Part shown: piece after piece, positions 7,636-58,061 of the stretch
Position numbering within the stretch: the stretch's first letter is position 1
Layout: every line of letters starts with the position of its first letter
NCBI GenBank assembly: GCA_963535415.1
Contig: CAUSVV010000002.1
Coordinates: 100,688 to 164,687 of the forward strand
Origin: an uncultured bacterium
Lineage (GTDB): Bacteria; Patescibacteriota; Gracilibacteria; Absconditabacterales; Absconditicoccaceae
Length of the DNA: 64,000 bases
Direction of reading: 5' to 3'
The notes under the pieces: generated by a model
The model's database searches: none
Told to the model about the DNA's origin: nothing
Seen by the model: only the letters and a program-made list of their open reading frames with translations
Program-made: the position numbers and the translations under genes

Positions 7636-7752
7636 ATCCTTTTTTATTTAATTGTGAATATATAGATAAACATTTTTAAGAAAAAGTCAAGAAATTAAAA
7701 AACAGTATCTGAGACAGATACTGTTTCCTATTCAAAGTGAATACCATCTTCC

Positions 7753-8211
7753 TCAACTTTCTAAAGAAAAAAGTTTGGGGACCCAAAGTTCAAATTTAGA
7801 AACTCCAGGAGGAAGGATTTGAGAATCTGAGAAAAGAAACTCAGGTTGCCCAGGATCTCGGAACAGATAAGATGCAGATTCTAAATAAGCCTTAAGACCT
7901 TTTTTAAACTCCAAGAAATCATCAGAAAGCATCAACTCTTTTAAAATCATAGGCTTCATACGCGCAAGTTTTTGCTCATTTGCCAATTGAGCAAGCCCAT
8001 CTTCCAAAAAGGAAGATTTACAATCATTAGAGAATAAACCAAGTTCAAGATTCTGATCTTCATACTTCTTAAGAAGTTTATTCACTCTAGTAATTGCTTT
8101 TGAAAGCTCTTTGAGATCATTGTAAGAGAGCACGATAAATGGCAACATAATTTTCTGAAGTTCGACTGAGAAAAGAGAACTCCCAATCTGATTTTGACCT
8201 TTTTTTCTCAT
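7753..8211 (-). CDS. Hypothetical protein, small paralog family
   Basis: 152-aa ORF sharing LSYNDLKELSKA, LKELMLSDDFLEFKK, RDPGQP and WVPKLFSLES with gene 8358-8804. Has its own terminator at about 7698-7730. Confidence 0.7.
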   Translation of the reverse strand: MRKKGQNQIGSSLFSVELQKIMLPFIVLSYNDLKELSKAITRVNKLLKKYEDQNLELGLFSNDCKSSFLEDGLAQLANEQKLARMKPMILKELMLSDDFLEFKKGLKAYLESASYLFRDPGQPEFLFSDSQILPPGVSKFELWVPKLFSLES

Positions 8212-8357
8212 AAAAAATGATATTTTTAGTAATGATTATTTTTATTTATATAATCTATAAAATAACATTTTTTACAAAGAAATCAAGATATTTTGGAATA
8301 CAAAAAACAGCACCTGTATATAGGTACTGTTTTCGCATCTAAATGATGCAATGTTCG

Positions 8358-8804
8358 TCAGCTTTCAATTTCGAACAACTTAGGGATCCAAGTTTCCAAC
8401 CTAGATCTAACTTTTTTACCGTTGAGGGCATAAAAGGTTATCAGGGGCTGTTCTGGATCTCGACACTCGTTCTTATAGCAAGCAATCTGATCCTTAAGCT
8501 CTCGCTTAAAATCAGAGAAATCATCACTAAGCACAAGCTCTTTAAGAGGCATAGTAGCAAGTCCAGCAACCTTACCATTGGGTAATGCAAGTGCATCAAC
8601 CACTTCTCCAACAATCTCTTTAGAAGAGACATCAGAGGCTGATTCTAATTTTTTCATCTCTTTATCCAAAGCTTTATTAACTTTAGAGAGTGCTTTAGAA
8701 ATTTCCTTGAGATCATCATAAGAAAGATCTATTGAGGCTGACAATGTTGCTTTAGGAACAACTGGGGAGATAACATCTCCTACGGAAGGATAAATCTTTT
8801 CCAT
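8358..8804 (-). CDS. Hypothetical protein, small paralog family
   Basis: 148-aa ORF with LSYDDLKEISKA, LKELVLSDDFSDFKR, RDPEQP and WIPKLFEIES. Own promoter (TTGACT at about 8871-8876) and terminator at about 8305-8335. Confidence 0.7.
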   Translation of the reverse strand: MEKIYPSVGDVISPVVPKATLSASIDLSYDDLKEISKALSKVNKALDKEMKKLESASDVSSKEIVGEVVDALALPNGKVAGLATMPLKELVLSDDFSDFKRELKDQIACYKNECRDPEQPLITFYALNGKKVRSRLETWIPKLFEIES

Positions 8805-12733: not shown

Positions 12734-14005
12734 TTAAATCTCCTCCATTTGCACAGGGACCGATTCAGATTTTTCTATCTGATTTCCATTTCCTAGTTGA
12801 TCTAAGCTGGTTGTATTCTCAGTTTCTGTTTGAACCGAAACCTGCTGATTCCCAGCACCAGATCCAGCAAAACCATCAATACTTTCAACCGGATTTTGGA
12901 CAAACTGCTTGGTTTTTTCAACAAAATTAGTTGCCCCCTGTTTGATTCCTGAGAAAACATTTTCGATAGGATTAAGCTGAACAGGAACCGATTGCGCCAC
13001 TACTTGAGTCTGAGAAGCATTCTCAGGCATTTGAAGAGGAACTGCATCTTGAATTTGTACAGGGACAGATTCAGTCGCCTGAACTGGAACTTGAAAAGGA
13101 ACTTGAACTCCTACACCCTGAACCGAATTTACAACTTGTCCTCACATCTGCTGAGCAGAAGCGACAACTTGCTGTCATGATTGCATGACTTGATTTCCTA
13201 TATTTTGGACTCCAGCCATTGGATCAGCTACAAAATTCTGAACTCCTCAAACTGGATTGCTTGCAAACTGCGAAACTCCATTCATCATCTGTCCTCACAT
13301 ATTTTGCATATTTGAAACTACTCCTCATCAAACATTCTGAACACCGTTCATTACTTGACCTCACATCTGTTGAGCAGAAGCCATCACCTGTTGCCCTGAT
13401 TGCATGACTTGATTTCCTATGTTTTGTACTCCAGCTATTGGATTAGCTACAAAATTCTGAACTCCTCAAACTGGATTGCTTGCAAAATTTTGAACATTCC
13501 CAGCAAGATTTTGTGCATTAGTCTGGATTGAATCTTTAAGCTGTCCTCACATATCAACCCCCTTATTGATCAGGTTTGTTGCCTGATTTGCAACCATTGT
13601 TGGAGCTGAAGTTATTGCACCTGCAACAGCATTCGTTTTCTCAGTAATCTTTCCAGCAATATTTGAGGTTGTGCTGGTAATACTATTAGCTACAGAAGTT
13701 GTCTTATCGAGCAAATTTTGAGTACTCGCGACTAATTTTCGAAAAAATCAAGGCTCCTGCTGAGGAACTTGTTGCACCTCAATAGGCATTTGCGCTACTC
13801 ATTCTTGATCCATCCCCTGATGAGCTGGAGCAGATTCTCCATTTTTAAGCCCAGTAATAGGATCAGGCTGCCCAGTCGCTTTAGCAATAAATCCAACAAG
13901 CTTACCAAGCATTCTATCAAAAAAAGATGGTTGCTTTGGCTCTGGAGGATTTACATGAGAGAGTGGAACTGTAGTAATGTTTTGAGCAGATACTGCTTCT
14001 GGCAT
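12734..14005 (-). CDS. Gln/Val/Gly/Asn-rich low-complexity repeat protein (423 aa)
   Basis: Track ORFs 13799-14005 and 12734-13030 share a frame. I checked every in-frame triplet between them and found no TAA/TAG and 11 TGA. Repeats of the type NPVGGVQNFVA, GNQVMQSGQQV and ASAQQMGGQV. Confidence 0.7.
13136..13487 (-). repeat. Internal tandem duplication, two ~130-bp near-identical copies with a 220-bp period
   Basis: 13136-13267 and 13356-13487 are near-identical (CCTCACATCTG.TGAGCAGAAGC...TGATTGCATGACTTGATTTCCTAT.TTTTG.ACTCCAGC.ATTGGAT.AGCTACAAAATTCTGAACTCCTCAAACTGGATTGCTTGCAAA). Confidence 0.8.
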
Positions 14006-43168: not shown

Positions 43169-44122
43169 ATGGATATCTCTACAATCCTCGCTGAGGCAAA
43201 AACCACAATCAGCGATTTCAAAGATCAAAATCCTGACGGAACAGTCATTATCTGGTGAGCAACTGCAACAGGGAAAACCAAGCTTTCGGTTTTATTATCA
43301 GATTTTTTTGATATTGAGGTGATTTCAAGCGACAGTAGACAAATCTTCAGAAAAATGGACATCTGAACTGATAAAATCAGCAAAGAAATTAGGGAAAAAC
43401 TACCCCATCATCAGATAGATATTGTAGATCCAGATGAAACCTATACTGCATGAGAACGAAAAGAAACAACAGATCAGCTTGTCAATCAAATCTTAACAAA
43501 AGGGAAAATCCCTTTTATCGTAGGAGGAACCTGACTCTATATCGACACAATTTATAAAAATTTCTCTATGCCTGAGTGTGCTCCTGACTATACTCTCAGA
43601 GCAGACTTAGAAAAAAAAGAAGCTGAAAAACCTGGTTTTCTCCACGAACAACTTAAAGCCATTGATCCAGAAGAAGCTCAGAAACTGCATCCAAATTCTA
43701 CCAGATACCTCATTAGAGCTCTAGAAATCTTTTATCTCACAGGAAAAACAAAAACGGAGGGCTATATTCAGCAACCCGTTTCACATCCGCTACTTATGCT
43801 AGGACTCCGAAGAGACAAAGAATCCACAAACCAACTCATCAATCAAAGAATCAAACAAATGTTCAAAGATGGACTCATTGATGAAGTAGAAGGCTTACTC
43901 AAAGAAGGCTATAGTCCAAACCTTCAATCTATGCAAGGGATCTGATACAAAGAAGTTGTAAACTACCTCAACTGAGACTACGGACGTGAAAAGATGGAGG
44001 AACTCCTAAAAAGGAACACGCATCATCTGGCGAAAAAACAAAGGACTTGGTTTAGAAGATATATTGCTGAGGGGATTCAAACACCAAAAGCTTGAGTTGA
44101 ATACAAAGTTCGGGAATTATAA
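43169..44122 (+). CDS. miaA: tRNA dimethylallyltransferase MiaA
   Basis: P-loop GATATGKT (first Gly encoded by TGA), SSDSRQIFRKMDIGT, and HHQID. Same frame as track ORF 43568-43945. Confidence 0.9.
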
Positions 44123-44155
44123 AAAAGAGAAATCAGATTTCTCTTTTCTTTTTTT
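44123..44155. terminator. Bidirectional terminator shared by miaA and the A-D operon
   Basis: AAAAAAGAGAAATC-AGA-TTTCTCTTTTCTTTTTTT. Confidence 0.7.
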
Positions 44156-44168
44156 ATATAAAATAAAT

Positions 44169-45242
44169 TTAAGCCACCAGTTCCTTCTTTGTATCTGGAG
44201 AAACTCTACCAGCTGATGCAATAAGCTGCTGCCTATCACCAGAAGCCTGATGCCTAGCCAACTGCAGATAATACGGTGGACGCCCAAAATGACGATATCC
44301 AGTAATCTCTCTCACTCTATATCAAACTCAGCTCTTACTTGTCTTTTGTCCATTGAGATCTAAAACTCACTTATCAGTTGAAGAGCCGATTGTTTTCACA
44401 TACCATTTCCCATTCTCCTGATACGGCTGTCCAACGACCATTTCAATATGATAGATTGGATTATGTCTCTTCTTAACTGGCTGTTCATCCCAATACATAA
44501 AATCTCAAACTCTGACTTCTTCTTTTGGAATATTAACATCACTAGCTTCAAAAGCCGCTGCCGTAAAACGAGAATCAAACTTAATCCCTTGCTCCTGAAA
44601 AGCCCAATTCCAAAGTCCTGAACAATCAAATCCACTTGGACCTGTAGCTCACCATTGATATGGCTTTCCAATTTGCCCCTCCGCAGACTTGATTGTCGCC
44701 TCAATGTATGGAATCTGCTCACTCGGTCGATTTTTAATCTCATGATGAGAATCTAGAGATTGCACCTTATGTTCCTGTGGAGAAACTCCCCCAGTAGTGG
44801 AAGAAGCTGAAGAATTCTGATTTCTTTCATTTTTCTGATCTTGAGAAGTATTTTCCTCAGTCTCTCAAGCAGAATCTTGACTTCATTCAGATTTTTCATC
44901 TATTTTACTCAAAACCTCGGCTCTGAGCTGATCAAGTTGTTCCTTAGTATCAACCTTTTTTAGTTTTTCCCTAATCTCTGAAAGCAATCCATGTAAAGAA
45001 CTTAGCTCAAGCGCCTTTCCCATCATATTATCCTTGATCGCATCAAAAAATCACTCAGAAACCAGATAATCAACTACCATATCATCTGCGATACCAAGGA
45101 TAGAAAGCGGATCTTTCTCCTTCATCTTTTCAACAACAGTTTTTGCTAAGTCAGTTTTGAGTTCAACAAGTTCTTCCTGAGTAGAACTAGCCTCTCAGCT
45201 CACAGCATCAATAAACTGTCCTAAATGATCTAATGTTCACAT
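44169..45242 (-). CDS. NlpC/P60 cell-wall endopeptidase with a helical N-terminal domain and no signal peptide (protein D)
   Basis: GKPYQWGATGPSGFDCSGLWNWAFQEQGI (catalytic Cys) and downstream HIEMVVG (His). Track ORF 44396-44743 is the wrong frame. ATG-TGA start at 45242, TAA at 44169. Confidence 0.85.
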
Positions 45243-45266
45243 TCTTTGTAATATAAGCATATAAAA

Positions 45267-48200
45267 TTATAAAAGCTCTTTTGTCAGCCAATCAGCTAAC
45301 TTTTGCACCATTGTATCATCTTTTAAGGCGCCACACTTTGCTTCTAAATCTGATCTCTTCACGAGTGTTGTTCCATCAATAACGAGCGTCGGCTGAAATC
45401 TAAACTTCAAAATCTCCAAACTTGTAAAATCAGTCTTAAATTCAACCTTTTGCCCACGATATTTCGACACACATCGATTTCTCAAGTTCGCTAGCCAAAG
45501 CATTTCATGTAAAGAAAGCTCCAAAGATAAACCTGACAATATAAAGTTATCAGCCTTTTGTTCAAATTTTACCTTATGACCTCGACTTTTAATCTCTGAA
45601 CTCTTTGGTAGATACTCGATATTTCATCTTTTCCCCTGCCAAACGACAGTATCTTTCTGATTTTCAATCTGATTTTGCAAACCTCCAAGTCCTCCAATAA
45701 CCGCTTCCTCAGGCTGAGAAAGTGTTTTAATTTCATAGGTGCACTGAGGGATTTTTGTATCATCAATATACGAAACTACCTCAAGAGAAGAGATCTGCTC
45801 CTGAATACGCTTATCAATTTGAGCGAAAAGTCACTGATTCAGATTCATTTTAGTAATATTCATCTTCGTAGTTCAAATATTTCTCAGCATCCATCACTCC
45901 AAGATCTTTTCAATCACAAGATTTGAAGCACGCAAAGCCAACTTATGTTCCTCAGATTTATCAGACGCCCAAAGTGATTTAAGCGACTTCTCTTCTCCAT
46001 TGATCTTAAGTTTAAGACTTTCTAACTTCTTCACATAGAACTCTTTAATTGGTTGCTGATCTAACGGAGAATCCTTTTCTAAACTCAGATTTCCTTCTTT
46101 ATCAAAAATATTCTGTTGACCAAGCCTAACTGCTTCTTGAAAACTTCCAAAATCATCAATATCATTAGTCAACTTAAACTGACTCACTCTCAAAAGTAAA
46201 CCTTTATATAAATTTTCAAAATACTGAGCATATTCCTCTGATTGCCTCAATGTCAAAGACGCCGCAGTTCACGGAGCATACACCAATAGATTTGCCTTAA
46301 CTTGCTCTCGATCTTTATATTTCTGACTGATGATAAGCTCAAGTTCCCTCGGCAAATCTAAATCATCCTCAAAGCCAAAGCTTCCATCGATTCCCCTCAA
46401 GTCCTCTAACTTTTTATGAGCCAGCTCCACGCGATCAATACATTTCTGCTGTTCAGGACTATATTTTGTCCTATCAGATACTAGATATTGCTTCTCAACT
46501 CCAGCAAAAGCATCTAACCCTCCTATTTCTGAACTCATCGAACAAATCTTCATTTTCCCCGCGTCCCAAGTGAAAAACTTTCTCTGCAGATCACCAAGTC
46601 CAGCTCTTTTCGCCTCAATAATCAGATAATACGGCAATTCCAAATACTCTCCATTAGAAGCATAATTTTTAACAAAAGTAGAAATCTGATTTTTGACCTT
46701 TGTTTGCTCCTCTAAAGTTTTGACCATAAGCTCCTCAGTCAAAATCTCTCTAAGCACTTTCTCAAACTCTTGTTGTAAATAAGGATCAATCGCCTCAGTC
46801 TTGGTATCAATATTTGAGCCACGAATAGCACTAATCAAGCGATCAACCAATCCAGGCACATCCGCTGATTTTATTTCCTTGGGAAGCTGCTGCGATAATG
46901 CACGATCTATCAGCCAATCTCTATTGATCTTCCACTCACTAGTATAGTAAATACCATGAACTCCTCACTTATCCTCTGAAAAGAAAGCCATCAACTCCTC
47001 TGCTGAATTCGCTCCCTCATAGCCATAAAGTCTCTTTGCCAGTTGATACTTTACATTTTGACTTACATCATCAGAATACTCTAAATCTGAATTCCTCTCT
47101 TTAGCAAACTGAACAATATCAACTAATTCGTCCTTATTCAAAGTTTGAAACTGTAATTTCTGCTCATCAAAACCATTTTCAATCAACTTTTCAAGCATAG
47201 CCATATTTCTATTAGTATCCTGAGGAGAAAAGTGTGATACTTCCTCACTTCTCTGCTCAAGACTGAGCCATTCCCTATATTTTTTGATCAACTGTAAATT
47301 CTGACTATACTCAGGAGAATCTCCCTCTGCCATCAAAGAATCAAAATCAGTAACCGAAATAAGCTCCTCAAAAAGAAAACGATTATTCTTTCTCAAATCC
47401 TCAAGCTTTTTAACTTTTTCTCTCGGAAAGTCTGCAAAAAATTCTGATTTAAACTGTGCTAGATTCTTGGCATAATCAAGGTTCTCATCCCATTTTTTAG
47501 CTTCAAACATCTTCAAGTATCCAGCAGACTCTGCAACTAGATCAATCAAACCTGAGGTACCTGCTCAGCTTTTTAGCTTATTCATCAGATTCGGATTTTT
47601 AAACTGCTCAGTTAAATATTTAGTCCTAACAGCAATTTTCTCCTTAACTTTTTTCAAAGAAGTAGTAAACGCCTCAGCTTGCTCTGGGGACAAATCTTTC
47701 AAAAAATCTGACTCAGATTTCCTAGAAGCGATATAATAATGAAGCATCTCATCTGTACTATCTCTCATCTCTTCAATAAAAAGGAGCGAATACAGAGCTT
47801 CATCCAGGTTTTTAGATTTTACATTATCTGCAGGAGCACCAATTTTCTCATTCCAAGACTGGTTTCAAAACTTTTGAGTATGTAAACCTTGCAAAACTGC
47901 TTGCCTAAGCTCAGCTCTACTCTGCCTCAAGAAATCCTCTCTATTCTGCAGATAAAAATCATGCGTATCAAAATACAAGGCATCAGCTCCAATACTCACA
48001 GCCGCAGTCACTGCTCAAACCGCAAGTCAAACAACCACTCCAGGAGCACCACCTACAGCTCCAATCCCACCGCAAATAATAATTGCCTCTATCGCAAAAG
48101 AAGAAAGTCAAACCGCAAGCTGGAAGTTTGCCTGATTTTTCTTGTTTTCTGCCCTTGTTTGATTAACCTTTGCGATCAATTCCGCTTCATCCATCGTCTC

Positions 48201-49313
48201 AAGGTAAGTCCACACATCTAGCCCAAGACATGCCACATCAATCATCATAGCAGCTTTCAAACTTTTTGCCCACTGTGTTAATTTTTTACCTTTTGAGAGG
48301 ACATTACTCATCGCTCGGAACTCCTGCGCATCCTTAGCGGATGCTAAAAGCTTCAGGACATCATCGCTGAGTTCCATATCAACTTTTTTCAATTTCATAA
48401 TCTCGCGAATCTCTGCAGGCGTTTTTCCAATCAATTCATCTGCATATGGAGTAAGCTTTGAAAATTGTCTAGGATGCATGCCAGCAGCAGTCAATAACTC
48501 ATCTGGGATCTGTCCTTTAAGACTATTCCACTGTTTAAACGCCACAAGTCCCTCATCATCCAAAGATTCAAATCCTGAACTCATCTTTTGAATCGTTTTA
48601 TCAATATTTTTGATTTGTCTTTTACTCAAACGAGAACTCAATGCTTTTTTCTCATTTTCCAAATTCTCAATAAGATCATGCATTCCAGATTTCATCTTCG
48701 CTGCATCAATATTATTCAGATTGCGAGCCTCAGCCTGCTTAATCAACCTATCCACAGTCTCAATTCCCCCAACTCCAAGTAGTGAAGTTCAAGCTCCATA
48801 CCCAATATTATGCCAAGAATTTCCTAAAGTATTTGTAGAACTCTCAGGGGAGCTTCCACTAGTCTGCCCCTCTAGACCTACACCTGAAGACGTACTTCAA
48901 GAATGTTGATCTGTGGAAGATGAAGCAGAATGTGAACTTCAAGAAGAATTAGAATTCTGATCTATACTTTCTGTCCCATCAGCTACAGGAGCTTCTCAGA
49001 GAATTTCAGCTTTAAGTCTAGAAAGTTCCTCTTGAGTATTTCTTTTTTCAATCTCTATTCTTTTTGCTTTCATAAATTCGAAAATCTCTTTTGCAGTCGA
49101 AGGCGCTACAAAATCAATAATATATCTCCACCAACCAAACTCCTTTGCCTCATCAAAGTGCTTTGGTAGCTCAGTTTTCCCAACGATAATATCCTTCACT
49201 TTGCTCTCAATAGGCAAAAGTGCTATTGATTTAAACCATCAAAGCTCTTTTTTGAAATCCTCAAGATAATACCCGGAAATTTCCTGTTTAAGTGTTTCTA
49301 CCTGAGTTGACAT
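45267..49313 (-). CDS. Giant orphan protein C (1348 aa): helical, with a Ser/Gly linker and a Gly-zipper-like TM segment
   Basis: Track ORFs 48996-49217, 48108-48755, 47565-47768, 46965-47549, 46269-46859, 45894-46256 and 45267-45539 all lie in one frame. I checked every junction triplet by triplet and found only TGA between them. Confidence 0.75.
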
Positions 49314-49341: not shown

Positions 49342-50580
49342 CTAGCTAATCTTAGCTGCAAACTTAAAGAGAGATTTTACACAAGTTACAAACTCATCAG
49401 CATTTTTTATTGCCTTTTTAAATCCATCAGCTTTAATAGTTTTGAAAGTTTTAATCAAACTATCTAATTCTGAATCCAGCACTCAACCAACTTTCTTATT
49501 GAGCAGTTTTGATAATTCATCAACATCAAGATTTTTCAAAATATCATCAAAATTAGAAACCAGTTTATTTCAATTAGCATCTACCGCATCCTGAAGACGA
49601 GAAAGAGTTTTTAACTTTTTGATCGCTGCAAGAGAAAGCCCAGCATCTTGAAATGGTCAAAACATATCTAAAACATCAACTATTTGAGCAACTTCTGAAG
49701 TCGTTTTTCAAGACAACATATCTAAAAATTCATCACAAGAATCAAGTTGTTGCTTGATCTTTAGCTTTCCAGCATCTGAACTAGCTTTTTCTAACTGTTT
49801 TGATAATGAAACTTTTGAATTAAGAGTTCTTTGGACAAGTCCCTTATACTCAGGACTATCCAAGAGCTGCTGAATACCCTTAAAATCAACAGGCAATCCC
49901 TTATTGAATTTATCAACTCCGATCTGCAGTGCATCTGGACTTACACCCGTCCTCACTGCCTCTCTAATATCTGAAGAATGATCAAAGTATTTTACAAGAT
50001 CATCATACAGATTTCTATGATTATTTCTCAGATCTAAGAGATATTGTTGCCCGTTCTTTCTTGTTACATAGGTATCAAAAATCTTAGCAAGATAGTCCTC
50101 TTTCTTGGTATCTTTGGATATATTAAACATCTTGAGCCACTCTTCTCTTTTATTTACATCCATAAATGGTGCATGGCTCTTTCTACTCAAAATACGCTCA
50201 ACTTTTTCAAGAGAAATATCTCAGTTATCAAGTGCCGTAAGCAATTTTTCTTGTCCAAGTTCACCTCTAAAGAAAAGATTTGACTGTACCCAGCTTGGAG
50301 ACCCATAGATCATTTTATTTCTGAGTCTGCTTCCAATCGCAGTTTTGTCCATCAACTTATTCATCACAAAAAGCGGTACTGTCAACGGAGCACCCGCTGT
50401 TTTAAGTCCAAAAATCACAGTTTTATTGCTCCTCATAAGCACTCCTGCAGCACTAATCACAATTCCAGTTCCCAAAAGCGAACCCATAAAAGTAGAAAAA
50501 CCTGACAAATATTCTCAGTTATACACTTGTTTGAGACTCTTTCATAAATTCTTTATCGATCCAAGCAAAAATCCTGGCAC
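49342..50580 (-). CDS. Orphan protein B (~412 aa) with an N-terminal hydrophobic segment
   Basis: Track ORFs 50221-50508 and 49708-50190 share a frame, extended to TAG 49342. Start uncertain: GTG 50580 (adjacent to the stop of A), TTG 50508, or an internal ATG. Confidence 0.65.
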
Positions 50581-52518
50581 TCTATAGATAATATTTCAGT
50601 TCTCATCGATATCTTTTTGGATAGTCATCTGTCCGAGGAAACATTCCTTTTTGAGTGCTAAAAGATCATTCATCACCTGAGCAGTAGCTTTAAGCTCCTC
50701 TGTAGGAATTTCCTCTCAATTCGCCAAACGCTGCTTTTGTTGTTCGAGAAAAGTCTGAGAACCACGGAGTATCTCATGAAGACCAGATTTTTCAATATAT
50801 TCTCTTAAACATGCATTATCTGTTGCAAATAGATCTCCATACATATTTAATACACTCTCCTCAACAGCATCAATCAATTCTTCATCAATATCTTTCGCAA
50901 CATTTTCACATGCCGATTGAAGGTTCTTTTTCTCATCCTGAGTGAATGCTTCTCCAGACTTTTTATTATATGCTACTTGCAAAATATCCGACTTTCCACT
51001 CTGAGCATCCAAGAGCTCATCTCTTCTCTGATCAAGTTTCTGAATCTCATCTTTAAGATCTTGTGAAACATCTGCTGAATCAAGCCCACATTTTTTGAGA
51101 ATATTCATCGCACTAGCAATTGGAGCATCCACAAATGCCTGATAATCAGGATCCTTTGCAATATACTTCTCAAAATTGTCACTATCAGATAGAAGCTCTT
51201 TCTTAGAAATATTAAGGGTCTTAGATTTTTTCTGCGCGATAGCATCAGCAAGCTGATCCTTCTTTTCAAAAAGGAAAGTCTGAACTCTGATCCCTTGCCT
51301 AAAAAAATACTTTAATTCATTTTGGGCCTCCTCACTATTCTCTCACCAGGCCTTAATCTTATCTACGATTGATCCTTCAATATTTTCAACCAATTTCCAA
51401 GACGGCAACTTACTAAAAAATGATTCCACTAGAACAGCAAGTTTCTCGGTACTCCAGCTAAGAATATGATTCTTCATCTTAGCAAATCCCTCTCCTAACA
51501 AGCTCTTAAATGAACTATTTTGCTCCAAAATAGCTGCAACACTTCCATATTGATTATCCAGACAAAAAGGGATGATTCACTTATAATTTTTAGCATCAGG
51601 ATTAGATTTTTTCATTTCATTAGAGATTCTCTGCATTTCTAGCTCATCCTGATATCCAGCATCAAGTTCCTTTTGATAAAAAGTTGAATATAAAACATCG
51701 ATATTCTCTCCAATGGTCTCATAATTTTCAGCCTTTTCCTTATTTTCTGGATTAGAGTGAAACTTATTATATCCATTGTATTTATCACCTCATGACGCTT
51801 CTTTTCATGGTTCAGGATCACCATTAAACCAGTTCCAGAGCTTACTAATCCCCCAAATTGAACCAACAGTTATTCCTCCCCATTTTAGAGCCTTTCAAAA
51901 CCAGCTATTCCAAAATCAGCCTTTTTTCTCTTTTTTTGATTTTGATTCTTCTTTGGTATTTTCCTCCTTTTCTTCCTCCTCATCACTACCAAAGAGCCAC
52001 TTAACGCCCTTATACACAAGTGCAACAGCACCAACTCCTGTAGCTACAAAACCAGCAGTACGAAGAATATTTTTCCCAGGTTCTTTACTCCAAGTTTCCT
52101 TACTACGCACCGCATCTCGCTGCTCTCCAGTAAAATGCTTGAGAGATGCCCAACTTCACTCCTCTTTTTTCTGAGTTAATGTTTTATCTTTCCCATTATC
52201 TGGATTCATAGTCCTAGAATCCTGGTCCGCTTGATCTTTCCCTTGAGAAACCACATCTTCTAGTTTTCAAAGCTCTTTTGAAAAATCAGAAACCTTAGAT
52301 TGCACCTCTGCAATCTTCTCTTTTACATTTTGATCTTTCTCCCTCTCAAACTGAACTTTTGCCAGCTCCTGAACAACCTGAATAGATTGGTAAAGTTCAA
52401 GCTTTTTCTGAGCCTTTTCCTTACTTTCTGTCAGTTTTTTTAAAGCATCAAGATCCGCCTTGATCTTATCAGTCTCAGACTGCAAACTCTTTAAAACATC
52501 AATAGAATTTTGAACCAT
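50581..52518 (-). CDS. Orphan protein A (645 aa): coiled-coil-like with a TM segment and a Trp/Gly-rich patch
   Basis: Track ORFs 52267-52617, 51916-52110, 51343-51528 and 50716-51132 share one frame, joined through TGA (checked triplet by triplet), ending at TAG 50581. ATG 52518 (MVQNSIDVL) is preferred over the upstream Phe/Cys-rich extension. Confidence 0.65.
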
Positions 52519-53886: not shown

Positions 53887-54040
53887 AATCAAAAAAAATC
53901 TGACTTTATGTTGACTTTTTATAGAAATTACGTATAAGATAAAATATAAATCTAAAGAAAAAATATTTCTTTCAGATTTAGGATCATTAACAAAAATCAC
54001 AATTATTAACAAAAATAAATAAAGTTAAATTTTTACAAAA

Positions 54041-54670
54041 ATGAGAAAAATCATCCAACTCATGACAAACAAAGTGAAGACAGTAGCTTTGTTTCTCGCA
54101 ACCCTTGTAATAGTATCTCTCACAACTTCTTGCCAAAAAGAAGATGTCGAAGATACAAATCAATCTACAGAAAAAAACACCCCTCAAGTCCTATTTTCCC
54201 CACCTCAGGTTTCTATTACAAACCATGTAGAATGGGAAAGTGAATTAGATATGACTAAAACAGAAGAAGGATATCTAACACTCAGGATAAAAATCCCACA
54301 CAAGAAGGCTAACGATGGAAAGATATATGATTTAGAGTATATTGAAGACATCACATTAGCCGGACAATGGGAAATAGTAGGCGATGGAGTCAGTATTAGA
54401 GGTTTAGAAGTACTAACACTTTCTACTGATAAAAATTCTTTTAATATCACACAAGATCATCCAAAACCAGAAGGCTCGTTCATATACCTAGAACGCCAGT
54501 ATGGTCTAAGCAAAAGATTATCTAAAGGATATTGGAAGATAGAAAAACAGTGGATTAGAGGTAAGGTAAAGTATAGAGATACTGCTCCTCTAGACTTAAA
54601 TACAAATCCCAAGCCTAAAGAAGAGGTAAAAAAGGAGAAGAAAAAAACTCCGGTCCCAATAAGGGATTAG
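54041..54670 (+). CDS. Lipoprotein (209 aa), unknown function
   Basis: Lipobox LTTSC after a hydrophobic N-terminus. Intact ORF with its own TTGACT..TATAAG promoter at about 53911-53938. Confidence 0.7.
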   Translation: MRKIIQLMTNKVKTVALFLATLVIVSLTTSCQKEDVEDTNQSTEKNTPQVLFSPPQVSITNHVEWESELDMTKTEEGYLTLRIKIPHKKANDGKIYDLEYIEDITLAGQWEIVGDGVSIRGLEVLTLSTDKNSFNITQDHPKPEGSFIYLERQYGLSKRLSKGYWKIEKQWIRGKVKYRDTAPLDLNTNPKPKEEVKKEKKKTPVPIRD

Positions 54671-54751
54671 ATTGATTGGCTACAAAAGTACAAGAGCTCT
54701 ATTTTATTTAATCAATAAGATAGAACTCTTGTACATCTAACAGTTTAAAAT

Positions 54752-54778
54752 GTCCTATGTAACTCATAGGACTTTTTT
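54752..54778 (+). terminator. Lipoprotein gene terminator; exact reverse complement of the mraY terminator hairpin
   Basis: GTCCTATG-TAACT-CATAGGAC followed by a T-run. Confidence 0.75.
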
Positions 54779-54877
54779 CAACCAAAAAAATCTGATTCTT
54801 TCTCCTTGATTTTATATCGCAAATAAATATAAAAGATCAGCATTCCCCTTGAGGAGGAAATTTTTGCGTATGCTCAA

Positions 54878-54949
54878 GCTCTCGTAGTTCAATGGATAGA
54901 ATAGGCCCGTCCTAAGGGTTAGATGTAGGTTCGATTCCTACCGAGAGTA
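54878..54949 (+). tRNA. trnR: tRNA-Arg (anticodon CCT)
   Basis: Acceptor GCTCTCG/CGAGAGT, anticodon loop GTCCTAA, T-arm GTAGG-TTCGATT-CCTAC. Confidence 0.75.
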
Positions 54950-55025
54950 CGTGGACATTCCGAAAAAGGCAATTTGCTTTTGGGTTTGTTCAGAATTCTT
55001 TTTATTTTTATAAGTGGTTTGTTTA

Positions 55026-55277
55026 ATGGCAAAAACACAGGAAAATGTATTTCAGAGACACGAGAGAGATACTGGGTCTCCACAAATGCAAATCGGTCTT
55101 TTATCTGATCAAATCGCAATGTTGCAAGCACATGTTGCAACTAATGCAAAAGATTATGATGCAAAGAGAAGTCTTTTGAAGAAGGTAGCAAAGAGAAGAT
55201 CTTTCTTGAGATACCTTAAGACAAAGGATCTAGATGCTTACACAAAAATCAGTAAAAAAATCTGACTTAAGGTCTAA
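55026..55277 (+). CDS. rpsO: 30S ribosomal protein S15
   Basis: HERDTGSPQMQIGLLSDQI..HVATNAKDYDAKRSLLKKVAKRRSFLRYL. Continues through TGA 55263 for 4 codons to a TAA stop. Confidence 0.9.
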
Positions 55278-55314
55278 TTATTCTTAATTTTATTTATTTA
55301 ATTTTACATCATTA

Positions 55315-56463
55315 ATGGCTAAAAAAGCTACTGCCCCAGCGGCAAGCCAGTTCACAGTTCCTCTTATCAAGGAAGGGCAAAAAGTAAAGTGAACAATCCT
55401 TAAAGAAATTGAAAACGGAGTTCTTGTAAACTGCGAAAATGGAGCATTTACTGGTATCATCCTTTCAAAAGAAGCTAAGGAACTTAAAAGATCACAGTTT
55501 GATCTTAACCCATCTACAGAACTTGAGCTTGAGATTATCAATCCAGCTGTAAGACACGAAGATGGATACTACATCGTTTCAGTAACTAGACTACTCCAAT
55601 ACGACGTATGGAAGTCAGTTATTGCAAAGTTCGAAAAGGATGAAATCATCACTGTTGTTCCTACTGAGGCAAACCTTGGAGGACTTTTGATCGATATGCA
55701 TGGTATCAAGGGATTCATCCCATTGTCTCAACTTGCTCCTATCCACTACCCTAGAGTAGAAGATGGAGATCAAGAAGCTATCTTTGATAAACTTCTTGAA
55801 CTTATCGGACAGGAAATCAAGGTAAGAGTGATCAATATCGATGAAGAAGACAGAAGAATCATCCTTTCTGAAAGAGAAGCTCTCAAAGAAGAAAGAGAAA
55901 AGGTTCTTGCTGAACTTGAAGTTGGAAAGGTATTTGATGGAGTTGTTTCAGGAATCTCTTCATACGGACTTTTCGTGACTATCGGAGGTACTGTTGAAGG
56001 TCTCGTTCACATCTCAGAAATTACTTACGGACACGTAAATGATATTGATAGACTTGGAAAGATCGGAGACAAGATGCAAGTTAAAGTAATTGGTCTTGAA
56101 AACGGAAAGATATCTCTTTCAAGCAAACAGCTCAAAGGAGATCCTTGGTCAGAGCTTCCAAAGAAGTACAAGGTTGGAGATATCATCGAAGGAGAAATCA
56201 TCAGATTTGTACCTTATGGAGTATTCGTGAGAGTATTTGACGATATCAATGGACTCGTTCACCTTAGCGAGCTTTCTCAAAAAGCAGTTAACAATCCAAA
56301 TGAAATCGTAAAACTTGGACAAATTGTAAAGGCTAAGCTTATCCTCATCGATCCTAAAAACAGAAAGATCGGACTTTCAATGAAACACTTGGAAGATAAA
56401 GCTGAAGGAGAAACTACAAAAAAAACTCCTAAAGCAAAAGAAGCTACGGAAGATGCAGAATAA
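55315..56463 (+). CDS. rpsA: 30S ribosomal protein S1 (four S1 domains)
   Basis: Repeated S1 OB-fold motifs (GFIPLSQL, GLVHISEI, GLVHLSEL). Same frame as track ORF 55687-56463. One TGA near the N-terminus. Confidence 0.9.
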
Positions 56464-56483
56464 TTTGTCATTAAATAATGAGG

Positions 56484-56512
56484 AAAACCTGAATCAATCT
56501 CAGGTTTTTTTC
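56484..56512 (+). terminator. rpsA terminator; 27-nt direct repeat of 58687-58713
   Basis: AAAACCTGA-ATCAATC-TCAGGTTTTTT. Confidence 0.8.
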
Positions 56513-56600
56513 TTTTTCTCTAAAATCCTCTCAAAAAGTTGCAAAATAAAAAAATCTAAATATAATCAGCCTTAGCTTTATATTCTATACAAAATAAAAT

Positions 56601-58061
56601 ATGTCAAACGTAAAAGACCTTTTACCAACACTTAATGATCATCAATTGGCTTATGTCAATCTTGATCTCCCAAATCCAAAAAATGGACAATATATGCTTG
56701 TTGCAGCTCACTTTCAACCTGGAAAATCAATGAACATTCTCCAGGCAGCTTGTGAAGTTGCAGCTGAATCATCTACTGGAACAAATTTCCTAGTTGAGAC
56801 GGAAACAGCCTTTTCAAAAGAAATGAATGCCCTTGTTTACAAGGTGGATGTAGAAAAAGAGCTTATCTGGATCGCATACCCATGGAGACTTTTTGATAGA
56901 GGTTGAAATATTCAGAATATTCTAACCTATATTGCAGGAAATGTCTTTGGAATGAAGGAAGTAAAAGCATTAAAAATTCTTGATGTATGGTTTCCACCTG
57001 CAATGCTTGAACAATACGACGGACCAAGCTATACCCTAGCAGACATGAGAAAATACCTCAATGTTTACAATAGACCAATCCTAGGAACCATCATCAAACC
57101 AAAGATGGGACTTACCTCTGCTGAATACGCTGAGGTGTGTTACGATTTTTGGGTATGAGGAGGAGACTTTGTAAAAAATGATGAACCACAAGCAAATCAG
57201 GATTTTTGTCCTTATGATAAAATGGTCAAACACGTAAAGGAAGCTATGGACAAAGCAGTAAAAGAAACCTGACAGAAAAAGGTACACTCTTTCAATGTAT
57301 CAGCTGCTGATTACGATACCATGATCGAAAGATGTGAAATGATTAGAAACGCAGGATTTGAACCAGGATCTTATGCATTCCTAATTGATGGTACAACAGC
57401 AGGTTGGATGGCAGTTCAAACCTTGAGAAGAAAATATCCAGATGTATTTATCCACTTTCATAGAGCTGGGCATGGTGCATTCACTAGACCAGAAAACCCT
57501 ATTGGATACTCAGTTTTAGTCCTTTCAAAATTTGCAAGACTCGCTGGAGCTTCTGGAATCCATACAGGAACTGCAGGAGTTGGGAAAATGGCTGGAGATA
57601 AAGCAGAAGATGTAACTGCAGCAGAAGGTATCAGATATATGAAAAAGACTGGACATATCTTTGAACAGTCTTGGGGAACAATTCCTGAAACGGATAAAGA
57701 CTTTGTAACGCTCGTACAAAGAGACGAAGATAACGAAGAAGTACTTACTGATGATAGCTGGAGAGCAATCAAGACCTGCTGCCCTATCATCTCCGGAGGT
57801 CTTAACCCAACTCTTCTCAAACCTTTCATTGATCTCATGGGAAATGTAGACTTCATCACAACAATGGGTGCGGGATGTCACGCTCATCCAAAGGGAACTC
57901 AGTCAGGAGCTAAAGCTCTTGTGCAAGCCTGTGAAGCATATCAAAAAGGAGTAGATATTCATGAATATGCTAAAAATAAGCCTGAACTCGCTGAAGCAAT
58001 TGCATTCTTTGAAAAACCATCTACAAAAGAAAAGATGAAAACACTTAGAATTGCAGCATAA
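56601..58061 (+). CDS. rbcL: RuBisCO large subunit, form II/III-like
   Basis: GTIIKPKMGL, GGDFVKNDEPQ (carbamylated Lys and metal ligands), HFHRAGHGA, SGIHTGT, SGGL and GAGCHAHPKG. Track ORFs 56601-56906, 56952-57158 and 57321-58061 share one frame. An insertion EQSWGTIPETDKDFVTLVQRDEDNEEVL lies before SGGL. Confidence 0.9.

Follow-up and report, generated by a model that had tools for sequence, protein, structure and literature searches.

How does an enzyme that cuts peptidoglycan come to meet its substrate when its sequence holds nothing that would carry it across the membrane? The question is raised by one gene in a 64,000-nucleotide (nt) stretch of DNA, referred to below as the window (contig CAUSVV010000002.1, positions 100,688 to 164,687), from an uncultured member of the Absconditicoccaceae. 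Its nearest genomes are human-oral 'candidate division SR1' metagenome-assembled genomes, at 92-95% identity, and SR1/Absconditabacteria are obligate epibionts or predators. A model that read the window without database searches had proposed that the gene encodes an NlpC/P60 endopeptidase with neither signal peptide nor transmembrane (TM) segment; we refer to this as the original prediction. What is new, as judged by comparison of sequences, is an N-terminal module and a C-terminal tail common to a set of different peptidoglycan-active enzymes. The most likely reading, and on balance a probable one, is that the gene encodes a leaderless polymorphic wall hydrolase addressed to an apparatus of giant proteins.

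A TGA-recoded gene for a predicted NlpC/P60 peptidase

The gene occupies 44169-45242, as originally predicted, and lies on the minus strand, which had not been specified. Once TGA is read as a sense codon, the frame is open from the ATG at 45242 to the TAA at 44169. The TGA already recognized as the second codon is one of ten in frame (codons 2, 16, 64, 120, 126, 198, 246, 292, 305 and 307). Under translation table 11 the interval yields fragments of 43-48 amino acids (aa), and its longest listed open reading frame (ORF), 44396-44743 on the minus strand, belongs to a different frame from that of the hydrolase, as had been pointed out. Over the whole window, reading TGA as sense raises ORF coverage threefold, from 36 kb to 111 kb. 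The gene and its parts are as follows.

44169..45242, minus: leaderless NlpC/P60 hydrolase gene, 357 codons plus TAA (table 25), comprising N-terminal module, linker, catalytic domain and C-terminal tail
44889..45242, minus: N-terminal module ('N-dom', here N-module), aa 1-118, acidic, six to seven helices (AlphaFold2 (AF2) models, profile search)
44727..44888, minus: disordered Ser/Gln/Asn/Glu-rich linker of ~54 aa, aa 119-172 (predicted local distance difference test score (pLDDT) <50 over 119-171)
44238..44726, minus: NlpC/P60 catalytic domain, aa 173-335 (Pfam, PDB matches, invariant columns, Foldseek)
44169..44237, minus: C-terminal tail, aa 336-357 (...QQLIASAGRVSPDTKKELVA), and stop; its pattern is common to several catalytic classes

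Alignment indicates that TGA is glycine, rather than tryptophan, in this gene, because codon 198 aligns with the conserved glycine of the PYxW-G motif in RipC, CD1368 and Acd24020, and because orthologues swap TGA with GGN glycine codons at the same positions. These positions are given as Trp in metagenome gene calls, which use table 4, and as Gly in NCBI records, which use table 25; on the strength of the PYxW-G alignment and the TGA/GGN alternation, table 4 was dropped in favor of table 25. Most public copies of the SR1 proteins collected here (P0001-P0207) were translated with table 4 and carry Trp at every TGA-encoded Gly, catalytic motifs included, and others stop short at TGA. Domain detection and structure prediction are therefore weaker across the SR1 lineage, where annotation with table 11 or table 4 conceals or garbles hydrolase genes.

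The C-terminal half of the protein matches Pfam NLPC_P60 (PF00877) with 49.4 bits against a gathering cut-off of 23 (E = 5e-13), over residues 198-270 in the numbering of a 363-aa form. It also matches NlpC/P60 chains in the PDB (best E = 1.8e-9), the nearest solved relatives being RipC, the diffocin hub-hydrolase, LytE, Acd24020 and Tn916-type wall hydrolases, and its modeled structure retrieves NlpC/P60 structures with Foldseek. Both of the motifs first quoted for the protein, GKPYQWGATGPSGFDCSGLWNWAFQEQGI and HIEMVVG, are found in the translation. Cys207 (FDCSGL; codon 44622-44624) is invariant in sets of 24 and 32 aligned orthologues, as is His265 (YHIEM; codon 44448-44450), which is aligned to the catalytic His in both CD1368 and Acd24020. 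Thus, the assignment to NlpC/P60 with an intact Cys/His pair was upheld, and a search for orthologues in which either residue is substituted found none. The third catalytic position, located by alignment with Acd24020, is Val282; it is Val or Ile family-wide, and the Pfam match reaches no further than profile position 71 of 105. Close behind Val282 come the invariant residues T284, S287, S288, T289 and D290. The enzyme may act with a Cys-His dyad or draw on a different third residue. The gene is predicted to encode a catalytically competent NlpC/P60 (C40) peptidoglycan peptidase, and no second NlpC/P60 paralogue was found within the window.

The protein shares its fold and Cys/His motifs with the NlpC/P60 DL-endopeptidases (MEROPS C40), which include Bacillus subtilis LytE and CwlO, Mycobacterium tuberculosis RipC and Clostridioides difficile Acd24020. 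CwlO and RipC likewise carry the catalytic domain at the C-terminus, behind a helical part and a linker. Unlike these enzymes, the window protein has no signal peptide or anchor and begins with an unrelated orphan module; its family is further set apart by a QPYQENG hairpin insertion, by the invariant family-specific motifs KTIGSSTD and YRHFGRPPYY in the catalytic domain, by the conserved tail and by the hydrophobic third position.

The absence of a leader is conserved

Signal-peptide and TM calls for the hydrolase family and for the giant proteins described below were made from hydropathy. The peak 19-residue Kyte-Doolittle value of the hydrolase is 1.14, compared with 1.8-3.0 for the signal, anchor and TM segments of other proteins in the window. 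A hydrophobic segment of either kind is absent from all 120 of the listed homologues, and nearly all of the 88 N-module proteins identified below lack one fit for a signal or an anchor. The original claim that signal peptide and TM segment are missing therefore stands.

An upstream in-frame start that supplies a signal peptide was looked for and is ruled out. The alternative ATG at 45260 would add only six residues, the non-hydrophobic MLILQR, and an in-frame TAA at 45267-45269, which is the stop codon of the upstream gene for giant B, blocks any further N-terminal extension. The start at 45242 is favored because orthologue N-termini (M-x-x-[LF]-[ED]) are in register with it and because the gap of 24 nt between giant B and the hydrolase is identical in the related locus L001 (loci of relatives are numbered L001 onward). 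The giant B stop thus stands in frame with the hydrolase and 24 nt upstream of it (45243-45269); L001 matches in both spacing and frame, and in L003 the gap is 47 nt. This in-frame placement is probably a coincidence. Because the 120 listed homologues also have no hydrophobic segment, leaderlessness is, on comparative grounds, a conserved trait of the family and no artefact of start site or annotation.

Sec signals look normal in this genome, because two other proteins of the window bear apparently classical ones.

1838-2914, minus: Peptidase_M23 protein, 358 aa, 94 bits, bearing at its N-terminus a classical signal or anchor, MKKRVKNLIFSVFFGIGIVASYAGA
54041-54670: lipoprotein with a classical hydrophobic N-terminus

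Conserved leaderlessness beside a Sec-dependent M23 enzyme in the same genome argues for a separate route for the hydrolases, and the M23 protein provides the contrast that sets the leaderless family apart.

One N-terminal module is joined to many wall-active domains

The N-module has a net charge of -10, and its top conserved motif is DYL[VI]xE. The original prediction had described ca. 170 acidic, helical-looking residues followed by a linker; the acidic and helical character was borne out, and the length was not, as the domain spans ca. 118 aa and the figure of 170 had taken in the linker of ca. 54 aa. Among orthologues the linker varies in length and aligns poorly. An AF2 model of P0001 (93% identical; pLDDT 62) shows six helices over residues 5-117 and disorder over 119-171, followed by the catalytic domain and, at the C-terminus, a short helix; P0001 carries Trp at TGA sites, which may depress AF2 confidence. 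In a second AF2 model, built from 67 diverse sequences, the N-module forms a compact bundle of six to seven helices (pLDDT 67). Profile searches found no match to the N-module in Pfam, NCBIfam, PHROGs or the PDB, Foldseek found no fold match in the PDB or BFVD (best E > 1), and none of 50,697 phage records contains the module.

A profile of the N-module only (the first ~118 residues) was searched against 1.84 billion representative proteins and recovered 88 clusters. The match is always N-terminal, in proteins of ~280-410 aa or fragments thereof, and most of these proteins lack the DCSG motif. The C-terminal halves of 47 full-length representatives, sorted by clustering and Pfam scans, fall into at least 11 unrelated groups (NlpC/P60, YkuD_2, M23, M15_4, VanY, SLT, C39_2-like and four unknown), distributed among the 47 as follows.

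NlpC/P60 or CHAP-like: 10
YkuD_2: 10
Uncharacterized Cys/His domain ending KSHFY: 6
Peptidase_M15_4: 6
Peptidase_M23: 5
VanY: 3
Peptidase_C39_2-like: 2
No known domain: 2
SLT: 1
Other singletons: 2

All of the identifiable payload groups except the C39_2-like one are known peptidoglycan-active families. Several of them, such as SLT and M23, would find no polymeric substrate in the cytoplasm; that they act on the polymeric wall argues that N-module proteins work outside the cytoplasmic membrane. The N-module of the L004 NlpC protein is 57% identical to that of the L016 KSHFY protein and 36% identical to that of the window protein. N-module similarity thus tracks lineage and not catalytic class, a pattern that indicates cassette exchange of catalytic domains among N-module genes. 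The family is confined to SR1 (Absconditabacteria and kin) relatives that recode TGA, and full-text searches of the literature returned no description of the N-module or of the operon.

The tail follows a pattern of ca. 20 residues, [LI][LIA]A[ST]-x(~12)-hydrophobic-hydrophobic-Ala, that is found across catalytic classes and in most members; the last residue is Ala in 31 of the 47 N-module representatives and in three of 57 window ORFs. Such hydrophobic-Ala C-termini resemble C-terminal secretion signals and also the non-polar degrons that are recognized by ClpXP or by tail-specific proteases, through which these proteases control wall hydrolases of other bacteria. On two distant Absconditabacteria-like contigs, a 1757-aa protein (L019 1107-6380) ends ...GYYSGMAA and a leaderless 248-aa lysozyme-like protein (L018 8390-9136) ends ...KTNMA. 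Hydrophobic-Ala C-termini may be the mark of a wider protein class than the N-module family.

The hydrolase genes follow two giant-protein genes

Three genes follow one another on the same strand, the hydrolase gene last.

49342..52518, minus: giant A, ~1058 aa when counted from the Met at which orthologues also start, or 1091 aa from the first ATG (52617)
45267..49313, minus: giant B, 1348 aa, with a Gly/Ala-rich TM hairpin at ~aa 399-443, ending 24 nt before the hydrolase start
44121..44149: 13-bp hairpin with A/T runs on either side (-11.1 kcal/mol, z = -1.9), between the convergent miaA and hydrolase genes

The gap between giants A and B is 28 nt, and the hairpin is likely to be a bidirectional terminator that ends the operon. 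Upstream of the operon lies a divergent mraY, which the operon also adjoins in L001. Giant A has a coiled coil in its N-terminal part, followed by a TM segment at ~151-169, a spacer that is acidic and Lys-rich, a weaker segment that is amphipathic and rich in Trp and Gly, and then a TM hairpin at ~677-719, which like that of giant B is Gly/Ala-rich. Neither giant has a signal peptide by hydropathy, and Pfam, NCBIfam, PHROGs and PADLOC hold no known domain for either. A PADLOC match to JetC was rejected as a coiled-coil artefact, with no anti-phage defence system matched otherwise. Giant B, the only one searched against the PDB (by sequence and profile), gave chance matches such as TAF6 (E = 2e-4, to a helical stretch) and Med21; its homologues form 14 clusters, none of them named. 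In L001 and L002, a 686-aa paralogue of the giant-A N-terminal region lies upstream of the operon (L001 454-2514).

We compared arrangements drawn from the window, L001-L004 and L006-L017. In ten of the 11 distinct arrangements with readable upstream DNA, one to four N-module genes lie directly behind giants A and B on the same strand, and the order giant A, giant B, hydrolase(s) is kept in relatives down to 35% identity. The genes behind the giants are listed here.

Window, L013: N-module-NlpC/P60
L015: N-module-NlpC/P60, then an uncharacterized 384-aa leaderless ORF ending ...THAA
L004: N-module-YkuD_2, then N-module-NlpC/P60
L003 (close relative of L004): N-module-NlpC/P60 alone
L016, L017: N-module-YkuD_2, a 223-aa gene, N-module-KSHFY, a short NlpC/P60
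L001, L014: N-module-NlpC/P60, then catalytic-only YkuD_2 and NlpC/P60 genes

The hydrolase array thus differs from strain to strain, as between L003 (NlpC only) and L004 (YkuD_2 and NlpC), and also in L016. The ORFs downstream in relatives, where identified, are more hydrolase genes. Short YkuD_2 or NlpC/P60 genes that are catalytic-only, without N-module or tail, occur at L001 11120-12262, L014 6996-8142 and L016 10976-11497, and resemble the orphan cassettes of polymorphic toxin loci.

In L006, a more distant locus, the giants are fused into one protein of 1628 aa, giant-A-like over 1-840 and giant-B-like over 1210-1626, and an N-module-M23 gene comes next. That they occur as a single protein is an argument for joint action of the two giants. 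Because the linkage is both tight and ancient, and because the giants are fused in L006, they are the best candidates for a docking or export partner of the hydrolases. The original suggestion of a link to co-encoded proteins A-C holds in so far as the gene is tied to large proteins, by the synteny and the fusion; the window has two of these giants, not three.

Comparison with known systems

Considered as a whole, the hydrolase family appears to work most like a polymorphic effector family. Polymorphic toxin and effector systems include the LXG type VII, Rhs/contact-dependent inhibition (CDI) and type VI Tae/Tge systems (Zhang et al. 2012, PMC3482391). With these the family shares the features by which they are broadly recognized, namely a conserved N-terminal module, unrelated C-terminal enzymes and strain-variable arrays, as well as the absence of a Sec signal and the presence of downstream catalytic-only cassettes; like Tae, Tge and Tse effectors, it carries peptidoglycan-active payloads, at least in all of the identifiable groups but the C39_2-like one. 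In contrast to these systems, it has no cognate immunity gene directly downstream, no LXG, WXG100, PAAR, VgrG, Rhs or other known trafficking domain and no known secretion ATPase nearby, and it has instead an orphan address module, a common tail and two giant hairpin-anchored partners.

Membership in more narrowly defined classes was considered and rejected. For a type VII LXG/WXG100 toxin, NLPC_P60 is the only Pfam match at E <= 0.01, the N-module has no fold match in the PDB, no FtsK-like ATPase was recognized in the operon or flanking genes, and the YxxxD/E string in the N-module (DYLVSE) carries too little information to count. A feature that defines type VI Tae effectors is likewise missing. 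The FtsEX-activated hydrolases of the CwlO/PcsB/RipC type were set aside because the protein scores below the equivalog cut-off and has no signal peptide and no long coiled coil; neither FtsE nor FtsX was recognized among the annotated operon genes and immediate flanks.

The hydrolases of monoderm conjugation and type IV secretion systems (T4SS), such as Tn916 Orf14-type proteins, PrgK and TcpG, offer a parallel to the window protein, since there too the gene of an NlpC/P60 hydrolase neighbors genes for large membrane proteins that presumably form an apparatus across the envelope. They differ in being membrane-anchored and in having no polymorphic N-module family. In the Patescibacterium Southlakia, peptidase and lysozyme genes beside virB4 are essential (PMC12102498). 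No VirB4, VirD4 or VirB6 was found in the operon or its flanking genes, the rest of the window being unscreened, and precomputed Pfam annotation shows none in related loci within flanks of 10 kb; a VirB1-like T4SS hydrolase was rejected for want of this linkage in operon or flanks and of a TM segment.

A possible parallel comes from phages, where long helical proteins with Gly-rich hydrophobic hairpins breach an envelope together with leaderless hydrolases, as in tape-measure or ejection proteins with muralytic domains (T5 Pb2) and in endolysin/holin pairs. The SR1 loci differ from these in having no phage genes, in occupying a conserved chromosomal site between housekeeping genes and in encoding giants and an N-module without a phage family match. 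A prophage or endolysin origin of the window gene was ruled out, as only residues ~182-295 match phage records and the flanks hold miaA, mraY and other housekeeping genes.

What the hydrolase may do

The reading that we favor, a leaderless polymorphic wall hydrolase addressed to the giants, builds on the domain identity, the conserved leaderlessness, the modular family and the gene linkage with its giant fusion, all established at the level of sequence. Export, docking, bond specificity and target are what we infer. The N-module, and perhaps the tail too, would serve as an address that docks the hydrolase onto the giants. These would either move it across the SR1 membrane or go into action with it on the cell surface or at the site of contact, where it would cut the peptide stems of peptidoglycan. 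As the target we prefer, if only slightly, the wall of a host bacterium to that of SR1 itself: turnover of cassettes at the level of strains and the separate Sec-dependent M23 favor attack on a host, and the lack of immunity genes, the adjacency to mraY and the CwlO/RipC-like layout favor housekeeping.

Several observations weigh against the favored reading. The call that the hydrolase has no leader rests on hydropathy. The hydrophobic residue at the third catalytic position means that full activity is not guaranteed, and the moderate confidence of both AF2 models (pLDDT 62 and 67) makes the missing fold match of the N-module weak evidence. Judged from hydropathy and the positive-inside rule, the bulk of each giant would lie in the cytoplasm and hairpins would anchor it, an arrangement unlike any known translocon; no Walker A motif was found in giant A, and no ATPase or known secretion component within the operon. 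No giant homologue is detectable next to the N-module gene in the distant loci L018 and L019, so that giants are not a universal partner of the N-module (the L020 contig stops immediately before that gene). No immunity-like gene lies behind the hydrolase, which in the window is followed by the terminator and the convergent miaA.

The most serious alternative, which we nonetheless regard as unlikely, is that the N-module hydrolases are housekeeping autolysins that remodel SR1's own wall, with the giants regulating or scaffolding them much as FtsEX does CwlO, PcsB and RipC. A helical N-terminus, a linker and a C-terminal NlpC/P60 domain recall CwlO and RipC, and RipC is the best match in both NCBIfam and the PDB; the NCBIfam match, however, reaches 57 bits against a cut-off of 425 and covers the catalytic domain only, and the N-module is modeled as a compact bundle with no long coiled coil. 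The enzyme classes represented (DL-endopeptidase-type, LD-transpeptidase-like, M23, M15 and SLT) are those of wall growth, and the mraY neighborhood in the window and L001 and the lack of an immunity gene also fit this view, whereas strain-to-strain gain, loss and swapping of cassettes would be unusual for core growth enzymes and a separate Sec-dependent M23 is already encoded in the window. CwlO, PcsB and RipC bear signal peptides, so that the export step would still be unexplained.

It is less probable again that there is no dedicated export at all, and that the enzymes are cytoplasmic and meet peptidoglycan on membrane damage or lysis, as pneumococcal LytA and phage endolysins do, or through a holin-like lesion. 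Endolysins and LytA typically are leaderless hydrolases in which a common non-catalytic module is joined to varied catalytic domains, and the PHROGs matches are indeed to tail and endolysin families. These phage matches are confined to the catalytic core, though, the N-module being absent from the phage records and BFVD; in every genome examined the locus lies among housekeeping genes without phage genes, and the tight linkage to the giants and the giant fusion would be left unexplained. Least credible of all is a metabolic role in the cytoplasm, in which the hydrolases would trim muropeptides that are scavenged from the host and imported or recycled. Soluble muropeptides are indeed substrates of some NlpC/P60 and LD-carboxypeptidase relatives, and an export signal is missing. 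SR1 also relies on host-derived building blocks (PMC8080830). Set against this proposal, the N-module is also joined to SLT, M23 and YkuD_2 domains, which act on the polymeric wall; a conserved N-module, a disordered linker and a tail are unexpected in metabolic enzymes, and there is no linkage to a transporter.

The address-and-giants reading has a bolder extension, which we offer tentatively. The giants and the hydrolases with N-module and tail could constitute a new lineage-specific apparatus of SR1 epibionts for delivery or envelope breaching, outside types I-XI. The N-module would then be a targeting signal and the tail a second signal or a degron, and the giants would insert in the SR1 or the host membrane and carry interchangeable wall-cutting enzymes to the host wall. 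Cultured relatives of SR1 kill their hosts by draining the cytoplasm, and the Vampirococcus genome paper mentions just secreted hydrolases and unexplained 'giant proteins' (PMC8080830). A Sec-bypassing, strain-variable arsenal of hydrolases tied to giants is candidate machinery for opening a host envelope; alternatively, it would mean an unusual control of SR1's own autolysins. In either case the locus supplies testable parts: a defined enzyme, together with its address module, its tail motif and two partner proteins.

Other features of the window

A homologue of the RuBisCO large subunit, of 486 aa, is encoded at 56601-58061 on the plus strand of this reduced SR1 genome; it matches RuBisCO_large with 311 bits, together with the N-terminal domain, and ends ...RIAA. 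The gene at 12734-14005 (minus) encodes a 423-aa protein made up mostly of Gln/Val/Asn/Gly-rich repeats (GVQNFVANPxAGVQNIGNQVMQSGQQV...), with no Pfam match and no signal peptide. Two adjacent paralogues at 7648-8211 and 8226-8804 (minus; 187 and 192 aa) have the motifs LSYxDLKExSKA and LSDDF in common; the first, which is the one that was scanned, has no Pfam match. GC skew is positive at 54001-58000 (+0.04 to +0.05), where there is a block of plus-strand genes, and negative over the rest of the window (-0.08 to -0.32).

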